This document shows positions 1 to 57,212 of a DNA stretch of 64,000 nucleotides, piece after piece. Position 1 is the stretch's first letter, and every line of letters starts with the position of its first letter. The position numbers and the translations under genes are program-made. This stretch comes from Candidatus Palauibacter poriticola (lineage in GTDB: Bacteria > Gemmatimonadota > Gemmatimonadetes > Palauibacterales > Palauibacteraceae), in assembly GCA_012270965.1 (NCBI GenBank), contig JAAXHJ010000044.1, forward strand, positions 18,311 through 82,310, written 5' to 3'. The notes below the pieces were generated by a model. It did no database searches. It worked only from the letters and a program-made list of their open reading frames with translations, and had not been told where the DNA came from.

Positions 1-1180
1 CCCTGTACTGGACCAGGTACGGCACGTCGAACTCATCGTATTCGACGAACCACGGCGTCTCCCAATCCGGCCAGATCAGATAGTTCTCTTCTGGCGGTTC
101 CAACCGTCCGATGAGCTGGCCGGACGTATCCAGCACCACCCACTCGGCCGAGTTCATCCCCGTACGCAGCAGTAACCAAGTGGTGCCGTCTTCTCCGGCC
201 CGGGCGCTGCGGACTGGCGGAAAAAACCGCGGCTCGCTGAAGGCCTCCTCCACGGCCCGACGATAACGGGCAAGGTCGACACCGGTACTGGCCCTTTGAA
301 CCCAGTCCTCCACTCGCCGGGATAGCCACTCATCGGTGACCCGTATGGGATCGTACGAATAATCACGAACCCAAGCGGTGTCCCCCTCAGCGTCGAACCG
401 GACGACTCGGTAGGTATGGGGGTCAGCCTCGTTCGCCACTTCCCGGTGAACAACCACGAGCCCCAACCCGTATCGCGAAGCCGTCGCCACTGAACGGTCG
501 TATACCGGCCGCACACCGAAATCCCGCCAGCCGGGTCGCCCTTGAATCTCGACTACGAAGGGTAAACCAACGACCGCCGACACGGTGTCGAGACGCGGGT
601 TTTGGTGATCGAGTCGGATCACGTGGTCGGGCCGGCGCGGGTCGGCGACGACCTCGTGGGCGTAACGCTCGGCACGGACGAGCAGGGACCCGTCGCCAAA
701 CATTCCGATCACATCCCAACGTCCGGGCGGCAGAGAGGGATGGCTCCAGATCGGTACCGATCTTGCGTAGCGATACTCCGCATCGAAGAACTGGACGCGC
801 CCGAGGTCCCCATCGGCGACCCAGAGCAACCCATCGTGAAGACCCATGGCGTCCAGCGACTCGAACTCCCCCGGCCCTCCTCCACGACCCCCTATGGAAC
901 CCAGAGGGGCACCGTCCACCGAAAGCACGCGAATGCGGTGTTCAAGCGGTTCCTCTACGAGGATTCTATCGCCATCGACGATCACGTCTCCAACGCTGGA
1001 GAAACCCCTCTCTGCGTCCAAAGCATCGCCAATCGTCGCGCCGCGCTCTAGAATCCACGTTGGCACTTGGCTCCAGACGGCGGCAGGCTCCGCCGCGCCG
1101 AAGGCGTAGAATCCCAGAATCCACCGTATGACGCCTGCCGGTGTCGTGCCTCTCCGCACCCACCTCTTCCTCTTCGTCAT
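1..1180 (-). CDS. Beta-propeller (NHL-like / six-bladed) family protein, paralog of 11217..12401. Start ATG at 1180; the 3' end runs off the window edge.
   Basis: Hand translation of the minus strand from 1180 gives MTKRKRWVRRGTTPAGVIRWILGFYAFGAAEPAAVWSQVPTWILERGATIGDALDAERGFSSVGDVIVDGDRILVEEPLEHRIRVLSVDGAPLGSIGGRGGGPGEFESLDAMGLHDGLLWVADGDLGRVQFFD... with no stop down to at least 600. It is not in the ORF track because it runs off the edge. It shares the GRRGGGPGEF / LWV.D...V.FFD motifs with the 11217..12401 protein. Confidence 0.6.
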   Translation of the reverse strand, partial: MTKRKRWVRRGTTPAGVIRWILGFYAFGAAEPAAVWSQVPTWILERGATIGDALDAERGFSSVGDVIVDGDRILVEEPLEHRIRVLSVDGAPLGSIGGRGGGPGEFESLDAMGLHDGLLWVADGDLGRVQFFDAEYRYARSVPIWSHPSLPPGRWDVIGMFGDGSLLVRAERYAHEVVADPRRPDHVIRLDHQNPRLDTVSAVVGLPFVVEIQGRPGWRDFGVRPVYDRSVATASRYGLGLVVVHREVANEADPHTYRVVRFDAEGDTAWVRDYSYDPIRVTDEWLSRRVEDWVQRASTGVDLARYRRAVEEAFSEPRFFPPVRSARAGEDGTTWLLLRTGMNSAEWVVLDTSGQLIGRLEPPEENYLIWPDWETPWFVEYDEFDVPYLVQYR

Positions 1181-1196
1181 CGGACCCCCGTCGGCC

Positions 1197-1709
1197 TCAA
1201 ATGGTGATTCGCCGAAGGTTCGAACGGATCTCCGCAGCCCGAGAAGGCACGTAGTCTCTTTCAATGATAGCGCCGGTACAGGAGTGACGTCTGACCGCCG
1301 GAGGACTCGCGGCCGGTCGCTCTTCGCGATGCCGCCCGTCAAGAAACCCACTACTCGTCCGGGGGGCGAAACGCGTCTCCGGCGGAGTGACAACCGCATA
1401 GTGTCGCGAGACTCGGCCGTGTGGACCGATGGCCAGGGCGCAATCCCCCACGCCGTTCTCGTCCGTGCTGATGGTGCACTGGTCGTAGGTCGGCCGGTCG
1501 CACGACAGGCCGCCGTTGGTTTTTGCGATGCCGCAGTTCATCCAGGCGTCACGCTTGCGCCCTTCGGCGTTGGGATCGCCCTTCTCAACCTTACACACCG
1601 CGCATGGGGCGGAGGTCGCCTGAGCCGCCGCTGGCTCGGGAGCCGCAGCGTACAAGAGCGGGATCAGTACCACGAGGAACGGGAGCGGGGACAACAATCG
1701 GCGCAGCAT
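1197..1709 (-). CDS. Small secreted cysteine-rich protein (170 aa), paralog of 12398..12895.
   Basis: Signal peptide MLRRLLSPLPFLVVLIPLLYAAAPEPAAAQA, then 8 Cys. The C-terminal block RRHSCTGAIIERDYVPSRAAEIRSNLRRITI aligns with RRRCDGGIIARRYSASEAQAIFASTIRIRI of the 12398..12895 protein. The overlapping plus-strand ORF 1128..1739 is featureless. Confidence 0.5.
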   Translation of the reverse strand: MLRRLLSPLPFLVVLIPLLYAAAPEPAAAQATSAPCAVCKVEKGDPNAEGRKRDAWMNCGIAKTNGGLSCDRPTYDQCTISTDENGVGDCALAIGPHGRVSRHYAVVTPPETRFAPRTSSGFLDGRHREERPAASPPAVRRHSCTGAIIERDYVPSRAAEIRSNLRRITI

Positions 1710-1740
1710 CGTGACGCGTCCTTTCGTCAAGGGTTCTGAC

Positions 1741-2073
1741 CTAACAACCTGATGTGACCGGAATCCGCCAGCGCCACGAGTAGACGACGAGTTCGCTTTC
1801 CTCGAACGTCCGGAGGGCCACCATGATGGGGGCTTGCGACGCGGTGCCGACGAAACCGAACGGGGCGGCAACCAGGCGCTGCGACAGCACGCCACCACCG
1901 GCATCGTAGGTGACGAGGAGCCTCCCGTCGCTCGTGACATCCGCGATCACTTGGAGGAAGCCGGGATCGAGATGGAGGGCGCTCAGGGCGAGCCAGTTCG
2001 GAGGCAGTTCGCCCTCCCCCTCCCCGGTCGGTGGTGGGTCCGGCTGCATGGACGCGACCACCTCTCCGTTCAT
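1741..2073 (-). CDS. C-terminal third of a split propeller paralog. Its ATG overlaps the TGA of the upstream piece (ATGA).
   Basis: MNGEVVASMQPD...LHLDPGFLQV...ESELVVYSWRWR aligns with the contiguous C-terminus of the 12892..13983 protein (..LHLDPGIWN...TELVKYSWERV). Confidence 0.45.
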   Translation of the reverse strand: MNGEVVASMQPDPPPTGEGEGELPPNWLALSALHLDPGFLQVIADVTSDGRLLVTYDAGGGVLSQRLVAAPFGFVGTASQAPIMVALRTFEESELVVYSWRWRIPVTSGC

Positions 2074-2810
2074 CTCATCGCGATCCTCCAGACGGTGTGG
2101 GGCGGATCCCGGAACGCGACGAGCGCATCGGCCTCCGCGACCGCCAGGAAGATGCGGTCCGTCGATGGCCAGAGTGGCGCCACGAACGTCGAACGGGACA
2201 TCCCGCCGTTGCCGTCGGGCACGAAGTGAAGTTCCGTCCCGTCGGACGAGGAGGAGGGCGCGAGGAACCACCAGCCGCCCGGTCCCCGTACGGCCGAGTG
2301 AACCTCCGCCGACGCGGGAGATTCAACCCGCTTGGTGGGCGGAGCGGCCCACGCCATGTGTGACATCGTCCCGTCGGAGTGAACCATCTCGCCCGTGCTT
2401 CGGCCAAGGAAACGGCCACCGACGACCGGTCGGAAAGCGGGCAGCGTTCGGGGCTCCGCGTCCGACCCGTCGTAGAGAAGCACGGTCGGCGCGCGCGCCG
2501 ACCAAGCCAGCAGGCGATCCCCCTCCCTCGAGAGAACGGCACCGCCAACGGTCACGCCGGGCGGCACCCGGTGGGTGCGCATTTGCTCGAGTTCCAAGAC
2601 GGGCTTCTGGCGAGAAGCAGTCGAAGCGCCGGCGAGCCCGGAAGCCGGTGCCGAGAGGAGTGTCCAGAAGCCGGTGATGACCGTCCATGCGTGGACGTCT
2701 CGTCGAAAGCGGTACCAAGCCAACATGGTTTTCGTCTTCCCAAATCCTCGAACTCGGGGGGAACCGGCCAGCGTGTGAAGAAACCTCGATGGGTCGGTTT
2801 GCGGAGACAA
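2070..2810 (-). CDS. N-terminal two-thirds of a split propeller paralog (signal-peptide-like MLAWYRF...ITGFWTLLSAPASGLAGA; alternative start about 2726).
   Basis: VLELEQMRTHRVPPGVTVGGAVLSREGDRLLAWS aligns with SIELTEQSSVTIPDGRLLRGAVLSPSGELIVAWF of the 12892..13983 protein. It ends ...TVWRIAMR*, where the intact paralog continues in frame (RVWRIGGVTDQ...). Confidence 0.5.
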   Translation of the reverse strand: MSPQTDPSRFLHTLAGSPRVRGFGKTKTMLAWYRFRRDVHAWTVITGFWTLLSAPASGLAGASTASRQKPVLELEQMRTHRVPPGVTVGGAVLSREGDRLLAWSARAPTVLLYDGSDAEPRTLPAFRPVVGGRFLGRSTGEMVHSDGTMSHMAWAAPPTKRVESPASAEVHSAVRGPGGWWFLAPSSSSDGTELHFVPDGNGGMSRSTFVAPLWPSTDRIFLAVAEADALVAFRDPPHTVWRIAMR

Positions 2811-3672
2811 GGCGACGAAACGTATGAAGATGGCGCAAATCGACTACTTGTCGGTCGAATCGAATGATCGGACCAAGTCGGGCGGTGGCCCCCCCCCCCG
2901 AAGATTTTCCGAAAGCGAGGCCCAAGACGGGCTGGACATGCCGTACCGTAAACGCCGCGAGCAGCTGATCGGGAGGAATCCCCGGAAGCGCGCCGGGGGT
3001 GCAGCCAGGCCAAGTCCGCACCCTCCGGTTCACCGTTGCGCGACGGATTCCCGTGCGGGCGGTCACGCGCTTCCAGCCCAACCCGGAGCGGCGAAGCTCG
3101 TGCGCCCGGAGAATCGCGAGACCACCCAGCAGTCCGCCAAGGGTCGTCTCGCCTCGGGCGCAAGCCCGGAACTGCTGGAACAGCGTGACGGGAGCACAGC
3201 CGACGGCTTCCGCCAACTCTCTCACGTTGCGCACGGGTCGCGAGGCGGCCTGACGCACGGCATATACGAGAGCGCGGCGAAGAGCTCGGGGAATCTCGGC
3301 TCGTTCGAAAGCCGCCGCCAGGCACAACAGCCCCGACGTGACGCGCACCGCATCAAGCCGGGATGGCAGCCGGGTCCGCAGTGCCGGAAACCAGACAAGC
3401 GCCGATACGCGCACGGCAACCAACAGCTCGGCGACTTTGGGATGGCGGTCGGTCACGAGCACGACCGGCACCCACGGGCGCTCGCGTTCAAGTTTCCCCA
3501 GTAGATCGAGTCTCTCGCGGAGCCGATGTCTCCTGCAGGCAATGATCACGGCTTGGGCATCCCGGGTCCGCGCAACAAGCTCGCCCTCGGAGTCCGCCAC
3601 GTGCACAGCCCGGCCGGCTGCCCTGCCGATCTCCCGAATCTCCCAGGGCGTATCCGCAAGAACCAAAATCAT
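2323..3672 (-). CDS. Transcriptional regulator with a receiver-like N-terminal domain (no phospho-acceptor Asp) and an AraC-type HTH. As given, the ORF reads through a G11 tract and into the propeller gene. The true 3' end is probably near 2844.
   Basis: MILVLADTPWEIREIGRAAGRAVHVADSEGELVARTRDAQAVIIACRR...VPVVLVTD has a receiver fold. ...VRELAEAVGCAPVTLFQQFRACARGETTLGGLLGGLAILRAHELRRSGLGWKRVTARTGIRRATVNRRVRTW is AraC-type. Downstream of about residue 225 the product is low-complexity and overlaps 2070..2810 in another frame. Confidence 0.5.
   Translation of the reverse strand: MILVLADTPWEIREIGRAAGRAVHVADSEGELVARTRDAQAVIIACRRHRLRERLDLLGKLERERPWVPVVLVTDRHPKVAELLVAVRVSALVWFPALRTRLPSRLDAVRVTSGLLCLAAAFERAEIPRALRRALVYAVRQAASRPVRNVRELAEAVGCAPVTLFQQFRACARGETTLGGLLGGLAILRAHELRRSGLGWKRVTARTGIRRATVNRRVRTWPGCTPGALPGIPPDQLLAAFTVRHVQPVLGLAFGKSSGGGATARLGPIIRFDRQVVDLRHLHTFRRLVSANRPIEVSSHAGRFPPSSRIWEDENHVGLVPLSTRRPRMDGHHRLLDTPLGTGFRARRRFDCFSPEARLGTRANAHPPGAARRDRWRCRSLEGGGSPAGLVGARADRASLRRVGRGAPNAARFPTGRRWPFPWPKHGRDGSLRRDDVTHGVGRSAHQAG
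2889..2899. repeat. Homopolymeric tract C11 (G11 on the minus strand).
   Basis: Read directly from the sequence: ggcggtggccccccccccccgaag. Confidence 0.85.
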
Positions 3673-3833
3673 ATCGGCCCAATCTTCCGATGAGGTCGTG
3701 CGTGACCGCGGCGGAGTCTACGGCGTCTGCGGTAGGCCGGGCAACGCGGCGCATCTTGACTCGGCGCGTGTTGACTCGGCGCCGTGTCGGCCCCCCGGTG
3801 TGTAGTGGCGCGGCGGAAGCCGGGATTCCGGCG

Positions 3834-6305
3834 CTACTCGCCGTAGGGGACCCAGATGTTCTTGATCTGGGAGGCGCGGCGCAGGAACTCGCGCCCCTCG
3901 CCTCCGGGGCCGAACCAATTCCGGCCTCGATCCGCGTGCGCCCAGGTGCGCTTGAGGTTCGAGGCGGAACGCCGTTCCACATCGGCGGCACCCCCCTCCG
4001 ACCCGAAGTACCACATCCCGTCGACCGCGTCGTGCTCGGCGAGGATCGGCCGAAGTTCGTCCTCCAGGCCGGTCAGGATGTTGATGACGCCGGGAGGAAC
4101 ATCCGACGTCTCAAGCACGGGATAGGAATCCGTGGCCAACAGCGGCCACCGCTCCGAGGCCACGGCGACGACGGAGTTCCCGAGCGCGACGGGCGGGATC
4201 ACGCTGGAGATGAACCCCAGCAGTGCGGGCTCGACCGGACACACGACCGCCATCGTACCGAGCGGTTCGGGCATGGCGAGCGTCACGTTGCGGAAGGGCG
4301 TACGGTGGACGGCCCCGTCCCATTTGTCCGCCCAGGCCGCATAGGTGAACAGCCGGCGCACGGACGCCTCCACCTCGCACGCCGCGGCCTCGACGCCACA
4401 GCCCGTCAGAGTGCGCAGCCGCTCCTCGAACGACGTCCGCCGCGCCGAGAGGTTCTCCGCCACGTAGTAGAGGATCTGCGCCCGCAGGTGCGCCGTCGTA
4501 CCGTCCCACCCGCTGGCGAGCGCCGCCTCCACCGCGTTGCGGACATCCTTGCGGTTTCCGCGCGCCACTTCTCCCGCCGGGCACCCCGCATGGTCGCGGA
4601 CCGCAAGACTGTACCCGCCGTCCGGCCGCGCCTGCCGCCCCCCGATGTAGAGCTTCGCCGTGCGGTCGACCGGGGGCGGCGACCCGCGAGCCGGCGCTTC
4701 GCCGCCCGGCGCCGCAGTGCCCGCCTCCGCAGGATCCGCCTCCGCAATGTCCGCCTCCGCAATGTCCGCCTCCGCAGCGAGCGCCGAACCCGCCGCACGG
4801 CCCGCCGCGCGCCCCTCCGCGTCGACCGCCCGGCGCGGGCGGACGTACTCCCACAGGCCCTCCCGGCCGCCCTCGCGGCCGAATCCGCTCTCGCGGTAGC
4901 CGCCGAACCCGGACGCGGCGTCGAACACGTTCGTGCAGTTGATCCAGACCGTCCCGGCCTTGATCTGAGAGGCGATGTCGAGGGCGAGGTTCACGTTCTC
5001 CGTCCAGACGCTCGCCGCGAGGCCGTAGCGCGTGTTGTTCGCGAGCGCGACAGCCTCCGCCGGCGTGCGGAAGGTCATCTGAACCACGACCGGACCGAAG
5101 ATCTCGACCTGGGCGATCCGCGCGGCCGGCGACACGTCCGTGCAAAGGGTCGGCGGGTAGAACCACCCGTCCCGGGGCACGCTCCAGGACGGTTGCCAGA
5201 CCGCGGCGCCCTCCTCGCGTCCCTCTGCGACGAGCGACTCGATCTTCTTCAACTGGACCGGCGCGATGATCGCGCCGATGTCGACGCCCTTGTCGAGCGG
5301 GGCCCCCATGCGGAGCGTCTCCATGCGGGCGCGCAGGCGGTCGGCGAGCGCGTCGGCGATCCCCTCGTGGGCGAGGATCCGCGATCCGGCGCAGCACACC
5401 TGTCCCTGGTTGAACCAGATCGCGTCGACCACGCCCTCGACCACGCTGTCGAGGTCCGCGTCGTCGAACACCACGAAGGGCGACTTCCCGCCGAGTTCCA
5501 GCGAGATCTTCTTGCCCGTCCCCACCGTCGCCTCGCGAATGAGGCGTCCGACCTCCGTCGAGCCCGTGAAGGCGATCTTGTCGACATCCGGATGATCGAC
5601 GATCGCGGCACCCGTGCGGCTATCGCCGGTCACGATGTTCACGACGCCCGGCGGGAGATCGATGTCGCGGCAGAGTTCCGCGAACCGGAGCGCCGTCAGC
5701 GAGGTGAACTCGGCGGGCTTGAGGACGACGGTGTTCCCGGTCGCGAGGGCGGGCGCGATCTTCCAAGCGAGCATGAGCAGCGGGAAGTTCCAGGGGATGA
5801 TCTGGCCCGCGACGCCGAGCGGCTCGCAGTCCGCGAGTTCGCCGTCCATGAGCTGAGCCCAGCCCGCGTGGTGATAGAAGTGCCTCGCGGCGAGCGGAAT
5901 GTCGATATCGCGCGATTCGCGGATGGGCTTGCCGTTGTCGAGCGTCTCGAGCGTCGCGAAGAGCCGGGAGTGCTTCTGCAGGTGACGGGCGATCGCGTAC
6001 AGGTGGCGCGCCCGCCCGTGTCCCCCGAGATCCCGCCAGGTCGCCTGGGCCGCCCGCGCCGCCGCCACCGCGCGGTCCACATCGCCGCCCCCCCCCTGCG
6101 CAATCTCGCCCAGTTGCTCTTCGGTGCTCGGGTCGAAAGTCGCGAAGAACCCGCCGTCCGCCGGTTCGCACCAAGCGCCGCCGATGTAGTGCCCGAAGCG
6201 GGGACCCCGTTCCCCGATCCACGCGCGCGCCTCATCGGCGGCCTCCGGGGCGGGACCGTACTCCATCGTCTCGAACAGTTCCGCGATCTTCGGCATCTGT
6301 TTCAA
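3834..6305 (-). CDS. Aldehyde dehydrogenase family protein with two tandem ALDH-like domains joined by an AEADI-repeat linker.
   Basis: The N-terminal domain has ELGGKSP, IWFNQGQVCCAGSRIL and PWNFPL motifs. The second half (KLYIGG...VAENL...MAMPEPLGTMAVVCP...) is a second ALDH-like fold. The DNA repeat gcctccgcaatgtccgcctccgcaatgtccgcctccgcagc lies at about 4730-4790. Confidence 0.8.
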   Translation of the reverse strand: MKQMPKIAELFETMEYGPAPEAADEARAWIGERGPRFGHYIGGAWCEPADGGFFATFDPSTEEQLGEIAQGGGGDVDRAVAAARAAQATWRDLGGHGRARHLYAIARHLQKHSRLFATLETLDNGKPIRESRDIDIPLAARHFYHHAGWAQLMDGELADCEPLGVAGQIIPWNFPLLMLAWKIAPALATGNTVVLKPAEFTSLTALRFAELCRDIDLPPGVVNIVTGDSRTGAAIVDHPDVDKIAFTGSTEVGRLIREATVGTGKKISLELGGKSPFVVFDDADLDSVVEGVVDAIWFNQGQVCCAGSRILAHEGIADALADRLRARMETLRMGAPLDKGVDIGAIIAPVQLKKIESLVAEGREEGAAVWQPSWSVPRDGWFYPPTLCTDVSPAARIAQVEIFGPVVVQMTFRTPAEAVALANNTRYGLAASVWTENVNLALDIASQIKAGTVWINCTNVFDAASGFGGYRESGFGREGGREGLWEYVRPRRAVDAEGRAAGRAAGSALAAEADIAEADIAEADPAEAGTAAPGGEAPARGSPPPVDRTAKLYIGGRQARPDGGYSLAVRDHAGCPAGEVARGNRKDVRNAVEAALASGWDGTTAHLRAQILYYVAENLSARRTSFEERLRTLTGCGVEAAACEVEASVRRLFTYAAWADKWDGAVHRTPFRNVTLAMPEPLGTMAVVCPVEPALLGFISSVIPPVALGNSVVAVASERWPLLATDSYPVLETSDVPPGVINILTGLEDELRPILAEHDAVDGMWYFGSEGGAADVERRSASNLKRTWAHADRGRNWFGPGGEGREFLRRASQIKNIWVPYGE

Positions 6306-6324: not shown

Positions 6325-7368
6325 TCACCCCAGCGGGTGCCGGTGGTAGGCGGAATACCGCCCCGTCGCCCGGTGCTCCAATTGGCGTTCGATGTCCGCG
6401 AGCAGTGAACTCGCGCCGAATCGGAACAGCGACCGGTCGAGCCATTCCCCGCCCAGCTCCTCCTTCACCAAGATCAGCCATTCGAGCGCCTGCTTCGCCC
6501 TCCCCACTCCGCCGGCCGGCTTCAGGCCCACGTGGAAGCCGGAAAGCCGCCGGTAGGCGCGGACCGCGCGCGCCATCACGAGTCCGGCCGGGAGCGTGGC
6601 GTTGACCTTCTCCTTGCCCGTCGAGGTCTTGATGAAGTCGGCGCCGGCCATCATGCACGTCCAGCTCGCGCGGGCGACGTTGCGCAGGCTCCCGAGTTCG
6701 CCCGTGGCCATGATCGTCTTCAGATGGGCCCCGCCGCACGCCTCGCGGAAGGCGCGGACCTCGTCGTACAGCGCCTCCCAGCCGCCCGTGAGCACGTGGC
6801 GGCGGGTGATGACGATGTCGATTTCGCGCGCCCCGGCCTCGACCGCCTCGCCGATCTCCTCGACCCGCTGCGCGAAGGGCGTGAGCCCGGCGGGGAAACC
6901 GGCGGCGACCGCGCACACCGGGATGTCGTCGCCGGCGAGCGCCTCGACGACGGCCGGCACCAGCGTCGGATACACGCAGACGGAGGCCACGCGCAGGCCG
7001 AGATCCTCGGCCCCCAGCGCGCGGAGGAGATCGGGACGCACGGGCTGGCGGGCCTTGGCGGCGAGGCGGGCCACCCGTCCCGGGGTGTCGTCTCCGGCGA
7101 GCGTCGTGAGGTCGATCATCGTCACGGCGCGGAGGAGCCAGGCGGTCTGCCACTCCTTCTTGATGCTGCGGCGCTTCCCCAGCGTGGCGGCCCTGCGCTC
7201 GATCGCGCTGCGGTTCGCGGCCTGATCCCGGATCAGATCCAGATCGAGCGGCGTCCCGGCGTTTCGCCCTCGCATGGGGACGACGGCGGCCTTCGCGCCG
7301 GCGCGAACCCGGCGGGGAGATGAAGTGCCGTCCCGGGGTGGGTTCCCGCGTTCCGTCGCTCTGTTCAT
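6325..7368 (-). CDS. deoC: Deoxyribose-phosphate aldolase, long (DERA-like) form. Probable start is the M at 7275.
   Basis: WLLRAVTMIDLTTLAGDDT, ASVCVYP, EIDIVI, LKTIMATGEL and ADFIKTSTG motifs. It lies 20 bp upstream of the ALDH gene on the same strand. Confidence 0.8.
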   Translation of the reverse strand: MNRATERGNPPRDGTSSPRRVRAGAKAAVVPMRGRNAGTPLDLDLIRDQAANRSAIERRAATLGKRRSIKKEWQTAWLLRAVTMIDLTTLAGDDTPGRVARLAAKARQPVRPDLLRALGAEDLGLRVASVCVYPTLVPAVVEALAGDDIPVCAVAAGFPAGLTPFAQRVEEIGEAVEAGAREIDIVITRRHVLTGGWEALYDEVRAFREACGGAHLKTIMATGELGSLRNVARASWTCMMAGADFIKTSTGKEKVNATLPAGLVMARAVRAYRRLSGFHVGLKPAGGVGRAKQALEWLILVKEELGGEWLDRSLFRFGASSLLADIERQLEHRATGRYSAYHRHPLG

Positions 7369-7582: not shown

Positions 7583-9811
<2,229 letters not shown>

Positions 9812-9848
9812 CCGCGGCCTGCCGTCCGGCACCAGGTGAGGACTTCCG

Positions 9849-10940
9849 TCACCGAACCGGCAAGCCGCGCAGGGTCGGCGTGGGCTTTCGTCGCGGAAGC
9901 TCAGCTTCGCGATGCGCCAAGCGGGAAACTGCTGTTCCGGAGAAGGTAGAGATGCCTGCCACCACCCAGAACCCGCGAGTCCTCCGGCAATGGCACCTCC
10001 TCGTCGAGCTTCCGGCCGGTTCGCCGGTCGAGTCGCCCGCCACGACGGCCGGAAAGCGCGCCAACGAACCCAATACGGGTTGTTCTATGGGTACGTACGG
10101 GAGCCGATACGCGCTCCAAGCGGCCTCGTTGGCCGTCCACCGATGGAATAGCAGAGGACGCCGGACGAACCGCGAAACCCCCTCATCCGACGCGCCCAGG
10201 CTTACGGACAGCAGCAGATCGTCGTCCACGGACGCGACGCGTATCGGGGTCCCGGGCCACCGCAGGATCGTGTCGGGCAGCAGGGCGCTCGTGAGGTAGG
10301 TGAGCCGACCCTATCCCGAGTCGAGCACCACGAAGCGACCGGAGGACGTCTCGGCCAGGCCGGCGATGCCCGGAACGCGAACGGGGCCCTCGCCGAAGCG
10401 TCCGAACGCCGCCTCGAGCCGCCCCCGCGCATCATAGGCGCGGACCTTGCGCCAAGGCCGCCAGACCGTTGATCCGCTGGAATTCGACCGGCCCCTCGCC
10501 GAATCGTCCAAGGGCCGCGTCGCGCCGTCCGTCCTCAACACCTTGCCAAGAACGATCCGCATCGCTCCACTTCCCGTATCGGGCGCACCCCCGGCATGCC
10601 GCGACCGCCAGCACCGTCGGCGAACGGAGCGAGGCGCAGCAAACCGTGGATCCTCCCGCAGAACAGCCACCATCGACCTCTCACCCCCGATCCCGCGCTC
10701 GTCGCGGCTCGGTTTGTCCGGAAGCGCGGTCCCGGCCGGACCGGGGAGCTCGGGACGATAGTGCGAACACAGTTCCGGATTCCCAAAAAGCACCCGCCCG
10801 CGGGACCTGCCGACAATCCACCGCTGAACGGCAGACACCCCGACGGTACGCCGGAACCGCCATAACAAACGCCGATTGCGCGTACAAGGCTCGCCGACCG
10901 CACCGAGGGTGCGGGGCGGGCGCAATCGGATCACCGACGC
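9849..10940 (-). pseudogene. Decayed fragments of a propeller-family paralog.
   Basis: Frame-broken pieces encode AYDARGRLEAAFGRFGEGPVRVPGIAGLAETSSGRFVVLDSG and AALGRFGEGPVEFQRINGLAALAQG, which match the FDHRGRFAQTLGRRGGGPGEFIAPLLMGWYSSELWVSD blade motif. There is no long intact ORF. Confidence 0.35.
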
Positions 10941-11216
10941 GGGCGGCCTGGTCGTGGTTCGAAGGCTGTGGGAGGCGGTGGGGCCGAGCGGCAGGATCGA
11001 CGGACGGCGCGGGAGCGTTGCCGGCCGCTACCGACCGTCGCTGATGGTGGAGCCGTGGGGTGGGTGCTGCTGCCGTAAGGCGGCGGCGTGACAGACCACC
11101 TGCCGCTTCCGGAGCGATGTCGGTTAGACAGATCGCAACCGGCGACCCGGCCGGAAACCGTGGCGCGCCCCAGCGTCGCGTCGGCCCGGCAAGGCAGCCG
11201 TCGGTTCCGCGACCCA

Positions 11217-12401
11217 TCACTTCAGAATCTCATACTTGACGACATACGAAATGTCCATCTCATCGGTCTCTACGATCCAGCACTCCGTCTCCGTAGCGGA
11301 TACAACGCGCGACGCTGCCGGAAGCCTGACTCTTCCAATCGTTGCCCCACTCCGATCAAGGACGAGCCACTCGGCTTCTCCGCTTCCATCGTCGGCCTGG
11401 CCCAACCACGTCGTCCCATCGCCTCCCGCCAACAGTCGTGTCACTGGCGGAAAGTACCGGCGTGTCTCAAAGAATTCTCTCACAGCGCCCGCGTGGGCCG
11501 CGCGATCGACGACCGAGTTCGACGTGAGCATGTTCTGTATTCGGTCGTCGAAAAAATCCTCGGGCACGCTCCGCGGCCGATATGCTACACTTCGATCGAA
11601 AACTGTGTCTCCAGCTGCTGAAAGGCGTGTAACCTGAAACTCCGGCGTCCCGGCGCCATTCCAACTACGTCGATTCACCACAACCGCCGCGGCTCCATCC
11701 GGTGCCAAGTCGATCAAATCCCCCTGAGGAAGGGGCGTCGACAAAAACATGATCGAGTTCGACTGCAATCCCGCCGTTATCTCGGCAATTTCTCCTTCCC
11801 GCGACAGCACCGCCAACGTGTCACGCACCGCACCGCTTGCATCCGAAACCGGAAGCACGACGAACGGTGTGAGCCCGCGAGCAATCGCGTGACTCCCGGT
11901 CTCGGGATACCCCACGATTCCTCCATCCGCCAAAACCGCCCACGGACCCCAGCTGAACACATCGTACGCCGCTTCAAACGGTTGCGCATACGGTACCGTC
12001 TTCACACCGCCGTTGTCGACATCGAAGAAAGTGACACGCCTTGCATTCCAGTCACTCACCCACAGTTCGGAACTGTACCATCCCATGAGCAGAGGCGCAA
12101 TGAATTCTCCCGGTCCGCCCCCGCGACGCCCAAGAGTCTGGGCGAATCGGCCACGGTGATCGAAAACCACAACGGTCCCGTCCTGTGGTTGCAATATATA
12201 TACGTGATTCTGATCCACCAGAACCGTGCCCACTCTCGTGAGCGCCGACGATGGGTCGTCTACGCTTCCGATCGTCACGCCGCGACGGAGCGACCATTCG
12301 GACACCATGGCTGGCGGGGCGGTGTCCGTCCCACACCCACTCCAGGTCAACCACGCAGCCAGCACGCCCGTCGGCCACCTCATGACCCGGCCGATACTCA
12401 T
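11217..12401 (-). CDS. Propeller-family lipoprotein (NHL-like / six-bladed).
   Basis: Lipoprotein signal ...AAWLTWSGCGTD. GRRGGGPGEF and SSELWVSDWNARRVTFFD motifs. The C-terminus is ...ISYVVKYEILK. The start ATG overlaps the upstream stop (ATGA at 12398-12401). Confidence 0.65.
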   Translation of the reverse strand: MSIGRVMRWPTGVLAAWLTWSGCGTDTAPPAMVSEWSLRRGVTIGSVDDPSSALTRVGTVLVDQNHVYILQPQDGTVVVFDHRGRFAQTLGRRGGGPGEFIAPLLMGWYSSELWVSDWNARRVTFFDVDNGGVKTVPYAQPFEAAYDVFSWGPWAVLADGGIVGYPETGSHAIARGLTPFVVLPVSDASGAVRDTLAVLSREGEIAEITAGLQSNSIMFLSTPLPQGDLIDLAPDGAAAVVVNRRSWNGAGTPEFQVTRLSAAGDTVFDRSVAYRPRSVPEDFFDDRIQNMLTSNSVVDRAAHAGAVREFFETRRYFPPVTRLLAGGDGTTWLGQADDGSGEAEWLVLDRSGATIGRVRLPAASRVVSATETECWIVETDEMDISYVVKYEILK

Positions 12402-12895
12402 ATTCGAATGCGTATCGTGCTGGCAAAAATCGCTTGCGCCTCGCTCGCCGAGTACCGGCGAGCGATGATTCCTCCGTCGCAGCGCCGCCGCATGATCGAG
12501 GCAGGAACCAGATCATTACGGATCATCTCCGCGTACCGCGCGTCCAGGTCCGATCCGTAGACCGCAGGCACGGTACCTACGGAACTCGCGTGTGAATAGC
12601 CGAGGGGCACTGATCCGTCCGTCCCGTCGGGACGAAGTCGCCCATCTAACATTACGACGCTGCCGAGACAGAATTGACCGCCGACCTCGCAACGTTCGCA
12701 CTCCGGCGTCGTACAGTAGTCATCCAGACCCCAGAGTGCGTTGTGGACGCAGTAATTACACTCTACCGCGCTTCCATCGGCCGGTCCGGGGCCGGACGTA
12801 CACCAAAAGCACTGCGCCACTGCGGGTGCTGCGACCCCCGCCCCGGCCAGAATAGCAAGGCCAAGACTCAGCATGACGAATCGTGAGCGTGTCAT
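12398..12895 (-). CDS. Small secreted cysteine-rich protein (165 aa, 9 Cys).
   Basis: Signal peptide MTRSRFVMLSLGLAILAGAGVAAPAVAQ, then CFWCTSGPGPADGSAVECNYCVHN...C.. It is a paralog of 1197..1709. It has ATGA overlaps with both flanking propeller genes. Confidence 0.55.
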   Translation of the reverse strand: MTRSRFVMLSLGLAILAGAGVAAPAVAQCFWCTSGPGPADGSAVECNYCVHNALWGLDDYCTTPECERCEVGGQFCLGSVVMLDGRLRPDGTDGSVPLGYSHASSVGTVPAVYGSDLDARYAEMIRNDLVPASIMRRRCDGGIIARRYSASEAQAIFASTIRIRI

Positions 12896-13983
12896 CGTTC
12901 TTCTCCTGCGCTTCCGGTTGAGTCTGGGACGCGTTCCCAGGAATACTTTACAAGCTCCGTATTATTCAACGTCCGGATGGCCAGTACGACGGGACCGATG
13001 GTAGCACTATCGACGAGCCCAAAGGCGGCGTCGACCGTCGTATATCGTGCGAATCGGCCGTTTGAGTTGAACCAAAGCAACAGCCGCTGGTCCGTCCCCC
13101 GGTGCGCCATGGTTTGAGCATAGCCCGGCCCGATGGCGACGACGGAGGTCGTATTCCAAATCCCTGGATCGAGATGCAAGGACCTGGCGATGTTGTTGTC
13201 GAACCAGTCGCCCGTGACCTGTTGGAACTTCACGGGCGGCTGATCCGTGACGCCGCCAATGCGCCATACGCGAAAGGGATTGAAACTCTGCCACACGAGC
13301 GCGTCGTGTCCGTTAGCGGAGAGTGCGATGCTCCCTGCGTAGGTCGAGTCGGGAATCCAGGCGTCTTGGCCGTCGGGCATTTGGACGCGTGGCGGCGAAA
13401 GGTCCGAGGACGCAAGAAACCAGCCGGACGTGGTCCGCGCTGCAATATCGGCTTTCGCTGCGCCGGGCAGACTCTGTCGGGCAACTACGTTTCCCGCCGT
13501 GTCCGCCACAACCAGGTCAGCTCCGCCGCCATCGATGATTTCGAGCGTGGTCGCATCCAAGAACGCGACGCCGATCGCTTGCCCGACATGCTGGGTAAGT
13601 ACGTCCTTGCCAATGGATCCACGGTAAACGCGGATCCCCGGAGTACTATTGAACCAAGCAACGATCAACTCTCCCGAAGGTGACAAGACCGCGCCCCGTA
13701 GCAGTCTCCCGTCTGGTATCGTGACGCTCGACTGCTCGGTCAACTCGATTGAAGGGCGTGACCACCGAGCATCACTTGACTGCCCGAGTTCCGTCGCAGG
13801 TGACACGGTTCCGTGTGGGGTCGGTTCGGCGGATGAGCGGCCGGGATGGGCGAGGAGTAGCAGGGCAACTGAAAGGATCTTAACGATCTGGCAGCATCGC
13901 CGCCGTCCGCGGACGGGTGGAGCTGTCCCGCCTTCACGGACGATTGATTTCCGCGGTTGAACCCGGCCCGTGTTGTTCCCCAC
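12892..13983 (-). CDS. Secreted propeller-family protein (intact paralog). Proposed GTG start at 13983; the start is uncertain.
   Basis: Signal-peptide-like RGRRRCCQIVKILSVALLLLAHPGRSSAEP. The body is homologous to 2070..2810 plus 1741..2073. The 5' 590 nt of the track ORF (to 14574) is Arg/Ser-rich junk that overlaps the IS remnant. Confidence 0.55.
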   Translation of the reverse strand: MGNNTGRVQPRKSIVREGGTAPPVRGRRRCCQIVKILSVALLLLAHPGRSSAEPTPHGTVSPATELGQSSDARWSRPSIELTEQSSVTIPDGRLLRGAVLSPSGELIVAWFNSTPGIRVYRGSIGKDVLTQHVGQAIGVAFLDATTLEIIDGGGADLVVADTAGNVVARQSLPGAAKADIAARTTSGWFLASSDLSPPRVQMPDGQDAWIPDSTYAGSIALSANGHDALVWQSFNPFRVWRIGGVTDQPPVKFQQVTGDWFDNNIARSLHLDPGIWNTTSVVAIGPGYAQTMAHRGTDQRLLLWFNSNGRFARYTTVDAAFGLVDSATIGPVVLAIRTLNNTELVKYSWERVPDSTGSAGEER

Positions 13984-14032
13984 AACCCCTCTCGCGTGGC
14001 CGGGAGAGGTGGGTGCGCACCGCCGGCCCGCC

Positions 14033-14611
14033 TCAGGCCGCATGGAGGCTCTCGTAGTCGGCCGGCGACTCGTAGCCGAGGGCGGAGTGAAGCCGACGCG
14101 TGTTGTGGAAGCCCTCGATGAAGCCGAAGGCCTCGTGCCGGGCCTCCGACGCCGTGCGTAACGAGCGCCTCCGGACGAGTTCGCACTCGGGCGTCGTGAA
14201 GAAGCTCTCGCACAGCGCGTTGCGGTGCGCGTCGCCGACCGAGCCCATCGACCGGGCGATGCCCGCGCCGCGGCAGCGCTCCCCGTCAAGGCGCCGCAGC
14301 TCCGTCGTCGGGCCGTCGCTTCGGAACCCCTCGTCCACGTCCGCCTGCCCGAGCCAGTTCCGGATCGTCGGCTCCGAGAGCTCGAACTCCCGGATCGGTG
14401 AGCCCGGCCCACAACCGGACCGCGCAAGCTCGACCAGCCGTTCCCGGTACTCCGGCAGGTACCGCCCCGCCCTCGCTGCCACGACGCGCCTCCGTGGTTG
14501 GCCCCATGGGAAGGTGCCGGTGAAACCGGGGCAACTCCAGGGCGGAGCATGGCGGGTTTGAACGACACCCTCACTCTCGTGTGCGATTGGCCTCATGGGA
14601 TGCGCACTCAA
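14033..14611 (-). mobile_element. IS3-family transposase remnant: OrfA HTH fused to the extreme C-terminus of OrfB, with the DDE core deleted.
   Basis: RYLPEYRERLVELARSGCGPGSPIREFELSEPTIRNWLGQADVDEG matches the IS3 OrfA HTH. DAHRNALCESFFTTPECELVRRR...EARHEAFGFIEGFHNTRRLHSALGYESPADYE matches the OrfB C-terminal tail. There is an AT-richer patch at about 14605-14650. Confidence 0.7.
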
Positions 14612-14666
14612 GCCAAAAAATCATCAAGAAATAAGGCGTGCAGACGATACCGACCGCATCAGTGTA

Positions 14667-14677
14667 CCCCCCCCCCC
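14667..14677. repeat. Homopolymeric tract C11 (G11 on the minus strand).
   Basis: Read directly from the sequence: agtgtacccccccccccaatcc. Confidence 0.85.
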
Positions 14678-14750
14678 AATCCGGAGTCAACCCTCTTGGT
14701 CCTCGAACCTACGGCGCGGTCAGCGTGCTTCCCTCAAACGCCGCCAAGGG

Positions 14751-15620
14751 CTACGAGAACCGGCGGATCGACTCGGCGACGAGGCGCTGGAAGCCGGGCT
14801 GGGCGAGCTTCGTCGTCTCCAGCACTTCCTCGTGATTCAGCGGTTCGTCAAGCACGCCCGCCGCGTAGTTGGTGAGGCATGAGACGGCGACGCAGCGGAT
14901 GCCGAGGGCGCGCGCCGCGATGACCTCCGGCACCGTCGACATGCCGACGGCATCGGCACCGAGCCGCCGCAGCATGCGGATCTCGGCCGGGGTCTCGAAG
15001 GCGGGGCCGTGCATCGCCGCGTAGACGCCCTCGTGCAGCGTCTGGCCGAGTTCGGTCGCCACACCGAGCACGATCGCCCGCAACTCCCGGTCGTAGGCGA
15101 ACGTCAGGTCGGGGAAGCGATGCTCCGCCCCCACCACGGGACCGATGAGCGGGCTCGTTCCGGTCAGGTTCAGGTGGTCCGAGATCAGCATCAACTCCCC
15201 AGGACGCCAGCCCTCGCGGATCGCCCCGGCCGCGTTCGAGAGGAAGAGGGCCCGGACCCCCAGCACCGCCGCGACCCGCACGTAGAAGGCGACGCGGTCC
15301 GGCGGGCCGCCCTCGTAGAGGTGGACGCGTCCGCTCAGCCCCAGCACCGGCCGGCCACCGAGCATGCCGATGAGGGCGTGGCCAGCGTGCCCGACGACGG
15401 TGGGGCGCGGCCAACCGGGCAGCTCCTCGTACGGCACGCGCAGCGCATCCTCGATCTCCGCACCGAGGCCGCCCAAGCCCGAACCCATGGTGATCGCCGC
15501 GATCGGCGTGTCATCGCCGAGCCGGGTCTCGATGCGCTCCCGCAGCACGCACGCCGCACCCTCGACCTCCGCTCCGATGGCCCTTGGAGCGGGGCGGCCG
15601 GCAACGCTCGGAACCCTCAC
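14751..15620 (-). CDS. Purine nucleoside phosphorylase (PNP/MTAP family). GTG start at 15620 overlaps the nupC stop (GTGA).
   Basis: GSGLGGL, HEGVYAAMHGPAFETPAEIRMLRRLGADAVGMSTVPEVIAA. The long N-terminal extension in the track ORF (to 16805) is spurious and overlaps nupC. Confidence 0.8.
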   Translation of the reverse strand: MRVPSVAGRPAPRAIGAEVEGAACVLRERIETRLGDDTPIAAITMGSGLGGLGAEIEDALRVPYEELPGWPRPTVVGHAGHALIGMLGGRPVLGLSGRVHLYEGGPPDRVAFYVRVAAVLGVRALFLSNAAGAIREGWRPGELMLISDHLNLTGTSPLIGPVVGAEHRFPDLTFAYDRELRAIVLGVATELGQTLHEGVYAAMHGPAFETPAEIRMLRRLGADAVGMSTVPEVIAARALGIRCVAVSCLTNYAAGVLDEPLNHEEVLETTKLAQPGFQRLVAESIRRFS

Positions 15621-56986: not shown

Positions 56987-57212
56987 CGGAGCCCGCTCAG
57001 CTCCAGCGGGGATCATGACGAATCCCGCCGTCCCGAAGCACCGATCCAGCCTCAGCGCTTCACGGAGATGACAACCACGAGTTGATCTCGGCGTCGGCGA
57101 GGAATTCATCGTGGGTGCGCGCGACATCCGGGTTCGGTTCGCCTTCGCGCGGCGGCGCCCCACAGTTCGGGGATGCGAACGACCCTGAACGCCGGCCTCT
57201 GCGGGGGGGGGC

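Follow-up and report, generated by a model that had tools for sequence, protein, structure and literature searches.

The window analysed here is a 64,000-nt stretch (69% GC) of contig JAAXHJ010000044.1 from Candidatus Palauibacter poriticola, a member of the Gemmatimonadota. Near its start, on the minus strand, the gene of a receiver-like/AraC-type regulator carries at its 3' end a homopolymer of 11 G (hereafter, the G11 tract), which is one base longer than the length that keeps the ancestral C-terminus and stop codon in frame. The same length was read in all other assemblies of the strain that we retrieved. The explanation that we favour, with modest confidence, is a genuine +1 slippage allele, in the majority, at the regulator 3' end, within an accessory module in decay or rapid turnover.

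The G11 tract and the reading frame of the regulator

The tract occupies 2889-2899 on the minus strand (C11 on the plus strand), exactly the positions given by an earlier reading of the letters and their open reading frames (ORFs) alone (hereafter, the sequence-only reading). As given, the ORF at 2323..3672 on the minus strand encodes 449 aa. The tract length was altered in silico and the gene was re-translated for G9 to G13. The G10 version encodes 275 aa with the C-terminus GLAFGKSSGGGPPPDLVRSFDSTDK and a TAG at 2844-2846, and the hand translation of the sequence-only reading, which had placed a TAG at about 2844 with one G fewer, was thus correct. The G13 version (276 aa) regained the ancestral stop, and the G9 and G12 versions encode 372 and 373 aa, respectively; one frame in three reaches that stop, which lies 42 nt downstream of the tract. 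The elements concerned are as follows.

2889..2899, minus strand: G11 homopolymer, in the Gly run of the disordered C-terminal tail of the regulator; the in-frame length plus one base.
2844..3672, minus strand: regulator in its ancestral extent, with its ATG start codon at 3670-3672 and its conserved stop codon, TAG, at 2844-2846; 275 aa only with G10 (or in the G7, G13 frame).
2847..2888, minus strand: ancestral tail of 14 codons, PPPDLVRSFDSTDK, which G10 keeps in frame and G11 does not; it is homologous to the SDGVSTLDQ[EK] of relatives.
2323..2888, minus strand: read-through extension of about 190 codons in the G11 frame, spanning the intergenic region and overlapping the next gene out of frame.
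2821..2846, minus strand: conserved DNA block TAGTCGATTTGCGCCATCTTCATACG, which takes in the ancestral stop codon and the intergenic bases directly after it.

The regulator in its G10 form, used as a search query, yielded 49 homologues from Candidatus Palauibacter and other marine/sponge-associated Gemmatimonadota, the best of them 64-65% identical; no relatives above 70% identity were found in the databases searched. Each genome has 2-3 paralogues of this multi-copy family. The comparison of C-terminal length with orthologues, proposed in the sequence-only reading, gave short proteins throughout: all homologues have 186-297 aa and none of the 49 carries the extension. An exact look-up of the 449-aa product returned no record. 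In alignment A1, the counterparts of the G10-frame tail (GGGPPPDLVRSFDSTDK) are GGGPTVSDGVSTLDQK in P0003/L001 and, in about 10 other homologues, an SDGVSTLDQ[EK] tail, and the stop context AAGTAGTCGAYTT is common at the DNA level to the window and the related loci L001 and L033. The short orthologues and the homologous tail together indicate that G10 (or G7, G13) is the ancestral frame, and relative to this ancestry the as-given ORF is, by these alignments, shifted by +1. The clean stop expected at G10 by the sequence-only reading therefore has its counterpart in the conserved tail and stop of the relatives.

The 190-codon extension, by contrast with the frames it competes with, scored poorly. 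Over about 2323-2888 the codon score was -0.29 in the G11 frame vs -0.10 in the G10/orfA frame (orfA being the next gene, described below), and over the overlap with that gene (2070-2726) the GC content at third codon positions (GC3) was 0.60 in the extension frame vs 0.79 in the orfA frame. By these measures the extension seems not to be coding sequence. A gene caller of our own, based on codon usage, missed the low-GC3 accessory regions (1-3800 and 9800-14900) and was not used as evidence.

The tails were also read directly from the aligned DNA. Among L001-L010 the differences are mostly third-position synonymous, which indicates that in the wider clade the tail is constrained at the protein level. 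Between the window and L033, all tail differences (at few sites) are non-synonymous, and this suggests that constraint on the tail has been lost in this sub-clade.

The block at 2821-2846 is kept in the window, L001, L033 and L002-L010, that is, across loci whose proteins share only 55-65% identity, and it is a candidate promoter/operator of the downstream genes. A sigma-70 consensus scan around the tract, including this block, found no promoter. The pattern of the block is TAGTCGAYTTG-N-(T/C)CATAC, also written TAGTCGATTTG...CATAC, and it is located at 4823-4850 in L001 and at about 5790-5815 in L033.

In the public assemblies the frameshifted regulator is skipped and antisense ORFs are called in its place (L034 10793-11197, 134 aa; L036 4407-5087, 226 aa, equal to about 2824-3504 of the window on the plus strand). 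Database proteins from these antisense ORFs across the regulator are probably spurious.

The length of the tract exceeds chance expectation. Under a first-order Markov model, runs of at least 11 were expected 0.047 (G) plus 0.089 (C) times in 64 kb, about 0.14 in all, and two were observed, at 2889-2899 and 14667-14677; about 1.6 runs of at least 9 were expected and four observed. Related loci, about 270 kb in all, had no run of 10 or more. The window has an excess of long G/C runs, which include two further ones, of 9 nt each, at 6088-6096 and 57203-57211. The former lies within the gene of an aldehyde dehydrogenase (ALDH), where it encodes QGGGGD in frame and the 86%-identical orthologue has QGSPGD; the latter lies 2 nt past the stop codon of a gene for a serA-type phosphoglycerate dehydrogenase.

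Reproducibility of the tract across assemblies

Same-strain contigs were fetched by exact-protein look-up with the adjacent ALDH (3834-6296), and three further contigs from the European Nucleotide Archive (ENA) cover the tract.

L034: ERZ23495058, ROBB19-1_SAMN11878273 scaffold_104, 102 kb; 100% identical over 14.3 kb and probably the window's own contig.
L035: ERZ27298222, MEGAHIT k141_372078; 99.99% identical over 8.5 kb, with a single-nucleotide polymorphism (SNP) of its own at window position 6604.
L036: ERZ23495086, SAMN11878272; 100% identical over 7.9 kb.

G11 was read at 2889-2899 in all three (3/3), and the agreement on this length extends over four contigs, 3-4 assemblies, two assemblers (scaffold-type and MEGAHIT k141) and at least two BioSamples. 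No consensus-level difference in tract length was seen among the same-strain assemblies, and all are out of frame. Scans of JGI metagenome contigs gave no match, either for the exact pattern with the 24-nt upstream flank or for a degenerate 28-mer that represents the stop region as it stands in the window and in L033.

One of the two options of the sequence-only reading was an assembly indel, in which the true genome would have G10 and the extra G would be a homopolymer miscall. On every platform, errors are most frequent at homopolymers of at least 10, and with G10 the protein does match the orthologues exactly in length and has a homologous tail; still, a miscall is hard to reconcile with the same G11 in several assemblies of the strain, among them a second BioSample (L036) and a MEGAHIT consensus with its own SNP (L035). 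The second G11 tract of the window was reproduced likewise. The G9 of the ALDH gene is in frame and its protein aligns end to end with the full-length, 86%-identical orthologue of L033, which argues that homopolymers are not generally miscalled here. A frame break nearby, between orfA and orfB, is reproduced too and does not lie at a homopolymer. We therefore regard an assembly artefact as very improbable. The two observations that the sequence-only reading had set against itself thus came out differently: G11 is uniform at the consensus level, and the long extension is absent from the orthologues.

The tract lies beyond the folded part of the regulator

The regulator protein of the window itself had zero Pfam or NCBIfam matches. 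Within its family, PF12833 (HTH_18, an AraC-type helix-turn-helix (HTH) domain) was matched by 17 of the 33 aligned homologues, with a best E-value of 3.8e-08, and PF00165 by four. The AraC-type HTH claimed in the sequence-only reading was thus seen at the level of the family only, with no Pfam match in the window protein.

A confident AlphaFold2 model of residues 1-261 (pLDDT 87.6) has an N-domain with strands at 2-5, 23-25, 41-46, 70-74 and 91-94 and helices between them. In Foldseek this domain superposes on the receiver domains of TadZ, HupR, RcsB and CpaE with TMt 0.6-0.78 at weak E-values (2e-3 to 6e-2), and it is predicted to have a CheY-like fold. No conserved column after strand 3 holds a phospho-acceptor Asp (VIIACRRHR in the window; family consensus ECLVVxxRxR, C/R-rich), so the domain is a pseudo-receiver. 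The C-domain of the model is all-helical, its final helix spanning 234-250, and there was no AraC structure among the top Foldseek matches of the model.

Regulator domains (minus strand): predicted CheY-like pseudo-receiver N-domain and helical double-HTH C-domain, from the AlphaFold2 model, Foldseek and the Pfam matches of the family.

The tract encodes residues 258-261, and every conserved alignment column lies upstream of it. Residues 254-261, encoded at and just before the tract, lie beyond the last helix with pLDDT below 50. The tract is thus in a disordered tail past the last structured helix, and the shift spares every conserved domain. For this reason the description of the site as classic phase-variation geometry in the sequence-only reading is overstated.

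In the intergenic region between the ALDH and regulator genes, a 15-nt direct repeat of 2.4 copies is present at 3747-3782 (minus-strand reading GCGCCGAGTCAA...), 75-110 nt upstream of the regulator ATG; it is a possible operator.

The same site in related loci

At the aligned site, L001 has TTCG9CCG, which is in frame and runs through the conserved tail, and L032 has TTCG7TGA, at which the protein stops immediately. The closest syntenic relative, L033, is a syntenic orthologue with ALDH and DeoC upstream. Its site has an interrupted GGAGAGG (TTCGGAGAGG...) and then an early TGA, and its old tail and stop are recognisable one base out of frame. The remaining paralogous loci, about 27, are without the tract insertion. 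As far as these aligned sites indicate, the run is a lineage-specific, expanding and long-term slippage hot spot at which the C-terminus has been repeatedly remodelled. The slippage-prone nature of the tract, as claimed in the sequence-only reading, is borne out by the G7, G9, G11 or interrupted versions at this one site.

The downstream module and its split gene

In relatives, the regulator gene is followed by a gene for an exported protein of about 340-355 aa with a lipobox-like LVPGC, one for a Cys-rich secreted protein of about 150-165 aa, and at least one for a DUF5128/NHL-like 6-bladed propeller. The window has the following genes in this position.

2070..2726, minus strand: orfA, 218 aa, the N-terminal two thirds of the exported family of about 340-355 aa; its TGA overlaps the next ATG (ATGA).
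1741..2073, minus strand: orfB, 110 aa, the C-terminal third of the same exported family, in a different frame.
1197..1709, minus strand: the module's third gene, for a small, secreted, Cys-rich protein of 170 aa (L034 gene call); paralogue at 12398-12895, homologues in L001 and L004.
1..1180, minus strand: DUF5128/NHL-like 6-bladed propeller, 397 aa, extending past the window start.

The orfA/orfB junction (2070-2073) has no homopolymer, about 14 residues are absent there, and both ORFs are called identically in three assemblies. The homologues in L001, L004 and L032 and the paralogue of the split gene within the window are single ORFs of 339-383 aa; L033 is without the gene of about 350 aa. 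The gene directly downstream of the regulator (2070..2726/2810), which is the propeller gene of the sequence-only reading, had no propeller match in Pfam or NCBIfam; the DUF5128/NHL-type propeller is found instead two genes further on, at 1..1180. In tblastn with the propeller of the second module this gene is covered over 388 aa in one frame, and it has a weak ScyF/NHL match.

The module at 1-2726 (minus strand) has a second, intact copy at 11217-14043 (minus strand). Both comprise an exported protein of about 350 aa, a Cys-rich secreted protein of 165-170 aa and a DUF5128/NHL-like 6-bladed propeller. The contig goes on past the window start, where another DUF5128 gene, MauE (PF07291) and a MauD/DsbE-like thioredoxin are found (L034 15569-17933). 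The gene content of the two modules, with the MauE/MauD-like genes, suggests a disulfide-dependent secreted-peptide or protein system.

The neighbouring ALDH gene (3834-6296, minus strand) encodes a double aldehyde dehydrogenase of 820 aa, in which the linker between the halves (4700-4780) is a 15-nt tandem repeat (AEADIAEADIAEADPAE). This repeat is absent or different in the L033 orthologue.

A second G11 tract

The other run of 11 in the window lies in a promoter-like sequence.

14661..14690, minus strand: TTGACT-N18-TACACT, in which the second G11 tract (14667-14677) fills the 18-nt spacer of a sigma-70-like site.

The site has 9/12 matches (0.0 expected in shuffles), and a G10 tract would give the optimal 17-nt spacer. 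On one side it has the stop of a purine-nucleoside-phosphorylase gene (14751) and on the other an IS3-type remnant, and the module at 11217-14043 lies downstream of it. The tract was also G11 in both further contigs that cover it, L037 and L038 (2/2), the latter an independent MEGAHIT assembly.

The remnant at 14033-14611 (minus strand) is a degenerate IS3-family transposase with an rve_3/rve_2 C-terminal integrase core, and its ORF also holds an OrfA-like HTH fragment upstream. It occupies the position expected for the regulator of the second module. We considered whether the two tracts are paralogous, the second being a relic of a regulator 3' end, and rejected this, as blastn-short and tblastn against all regulator loci gave chance-level matches only.

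Contingency switching and recoding as alternatives

The other option of the sequence-only reading was a slipped-strand switch. As a contingency locus, the regulator would alternate at high frequency between G10 (275 aa, module regulated) and G11/G12 (extended or inactive, with translation over the downstream start), expression of the exported Cys-rich/propeller module would be heterogeneous, and the second G11 tract would act likewise on the paralogous module. Several features fit such a locus. With 11 G the tract lies beyond the hypermutable G/C length of known phase-variable species (PMC8355987) and above the length of about 8 from which G/C runs count as hypermutable. The repeat number sets the frame, with the ancestral stop in one of three, and the orthologous tract differs in length between lineages (G7, G9, G11). 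The two G11 tracts in 64 kb, where 0.14 were expected, are each 5' of one of two paralogous modules, the second exactly in the TTGACT-18-TACACT spacer that G10 would bring to 17 nt.

However, the same-strain assemblies are all G11 (tract 1, 3/3 besides the window; tract 2, 2/2), and a switch is not demonstrated by a single, out-of-frame length in all of them. The tract lies beyond all conserved folded parts, whereas known switches have their tracts at the 5' end or in the middle of the ORF; the module to be controlled already has a fixed split gene; about 25 paralogous regulators of related genomes are without the tract; and an IS remnant stands between tract 2 and its module. Because reversion by slippage is possible, we keep a contingency role as an unlikely but real option.

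In Campylobacter jejuni and its relatives, poly-G/C contingency loci are known, and mutable tracts also occur in the regulators flgR and flgS (PMC8355987). The window resembles these loci in having a G/C homopolymer of at least 8 nt within an ORF (tract 1) or in an intergenic region (tract 2), the length of which sets the frame, and in that a transcription regulator is hit with exported/surface proteins downstream. In Campylobacter, switching was measured within clonal populations and the tract shift abolishes the protein, whereas here a single length is found in the assemblies and the tract lies in a disordered C-terminal tail, in a 69% GC genome of an uncultured member of the Gemmatimonadota. 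In flgR and flgS the tracts are short runs of A/T, with mutations that were termed non-reversible (PMC8355987).

The present site shares with the bvgS gene of Bordetella pertussis a C/G-run frameshift in a regulator gene, bvgS being a master regulator in which the shift alters the expression of a set of secreted/surface proteins. There, as reportedly found by Stibitz et al. in 1989, a poly-C frameshift (C6/C7) in the coding body truncates and inactivates the sensor, and reversion is said to have been shown experimentally. The bvgS tract is short and inside the coding body, whereas G11 here is in the C-terminal tail.

Homopolymers in promoter spacers act as switches in Neisseria porA/opc, Haemophilus hif and Bordetella fim. 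The second tract alone resembles these, as poly-G fills a -35/-10-like spacer and one base turns 18 nt into 17 nt. It differs from them in that the promoter is a consensus match only, in a phylum whose promoters are uncharacterised, that it faces an IS3 remnant, and that its length does not vary among the assemblies.

A different role for a tract of fixed length would be recoding, in which slippage of RNA polymerase, or a shift of tRNA-Gly on GGG, yields the 275-aa protein and longer variants from one G11 template. The precedent is tssM1 of Citrobacter rodentium, where a run of 11 A, 28 nt before the stop, causes frameshifting at about 20% and neither product is dispensable (PMC4256274; reviewed in PMC5009743). 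As in tssM1, an 11-nt homopolymer, fixed in the genome and tens of nt before a stop (42 nt here), divides short and long C-terminal variants; it is longer than the RNA-DNA hybrid, it is 11 in all assemblies, and the G10 frame still preserves both the ancestral tail and its stop. In tssM1, unlike here, the run is poly-A and both the slippage and the need for both products are proven, whereas the poly-G template of the window codes for the long, junk-like form. Documented bacterial transcriptional slippage concerns A/T runs (PMC6260861, PMC4256274) and gives no support for G runs here. Relatives are without a conserved out-of-frame arrangement (L001 is in frame, L032 stops immediately), and the tail changes between the window and L033, all non-synonymous in a small sample, give no sign of present selection in the sub-clade. 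Recoding is accordingly quite improbable. Programmed ribosomal frameshifting on G GGG GGG was also considered; neither a stimulatory feature nor a conserved out-of-frame arrangement in relatives was found, and it is kept within this improbable alternative.

A probable slippage mutation in a decaying module

A third option, absent from the sequence-only reading, is a fixed slippage mutation in a decaying module, and this is the one we hold to be the somewhat probable answer. The marks of a pseudogene are present: the ancestral stop of the regulator is out of frame, the adjacent gene is split, and the tail frame of L033 is also lost. Decay or turnover of the accessory module is proposed because the next gene is split as well. 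No switching was seen in the assemblies.

In this lineage, a poly-G run would have grown at the 3' end of the receiver-like/AraC-type regulator gene. The strain now stands one G above the in-frame length, with the +1 allele in the majority or fixed in every sampled population. That allele drops the ancestral 14-residue tail and its TAG, and ribosomes would continue for about 190 codons through the intergenic region, the block at 2821-2846 and the start of the next gene, and then through that gene out of frame. The folded regulator would be unchanged, as the tract encodes only the disordered tail. The outcome may be a junk-extended protein, probably destabilised or partly active, or a silent pseudogene, and slippage back to G10 would be mechanistically possible, which makes the tract a potential switch. 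The tract, its frames, the lengths of the orthologues, the homology of the tail, the agreement of the assemblies, the split neighbour and the disordered position are observations, whereas the effect on protein function and the reversibility are inferred.

Several points weigh against this explanation. Assemblies give the majority allele alone, and minority G10/G12 subpopulations are possible. The assemblies may share habitat, study and even reads, those numbered ERZ272982xx possibly being re-assemblies, and they can be taken as independent with confidence only for two BioSamples and for the consensus that has its own SNP. The over-representation of long G/C runs, and the second G11 tract in its promoter-like spacer ahead of the paralogous module, would fit hypermutable tracts under selection instead of neutral decay. 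In addition, decay is based on two lesions only: the Cys-rich gene and the propeller of the first module seem intact, and the core of the regulator is without a stop or further shift.

Homopolymer slippage frameshifts are a known kind of event, and the G11 tract is one of them. It is not classed as a proven contingency locus, because the shift removes no functional domain and the sampled populations share one length.

Implications

For annotation, the 449-aa ORF is neither a real long regulator nor an assembly error to be silently "corrected". The locus carries a frameshift allele, reproduced between assemblies, of a pseudo-receiver/HTH regulator of 275 aa, and this allele is mis-handled by gene callers. 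Across uncultured marine Gemmatimonadota, poly-G has grown at one site (interrupted, G7, G9, G11), and the C-terminus of the regulator has been remodelled repeatedly. On present evidence this is an ordinary fixed slippage mutation.

There is a small chance that the poly-G tracts are true contingency switches, or that the regulator is made in two isoforms through transcriptional slippage at a fixed G11. A contingency locus would be the first phase variation by simple sequence repeats (SSRs) described in the phylum, in a symbiont-type genome of 69% GC, and length heterogeneity, if it were seen in reads at both G11 tracts, would mean that phase variation by homopolymers also occurs in a phylum that is uncultured and high in GC. 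The Cys-rich/DUF5128/MauE-MauD module would then have a variable, probably host- or environment-facing function.

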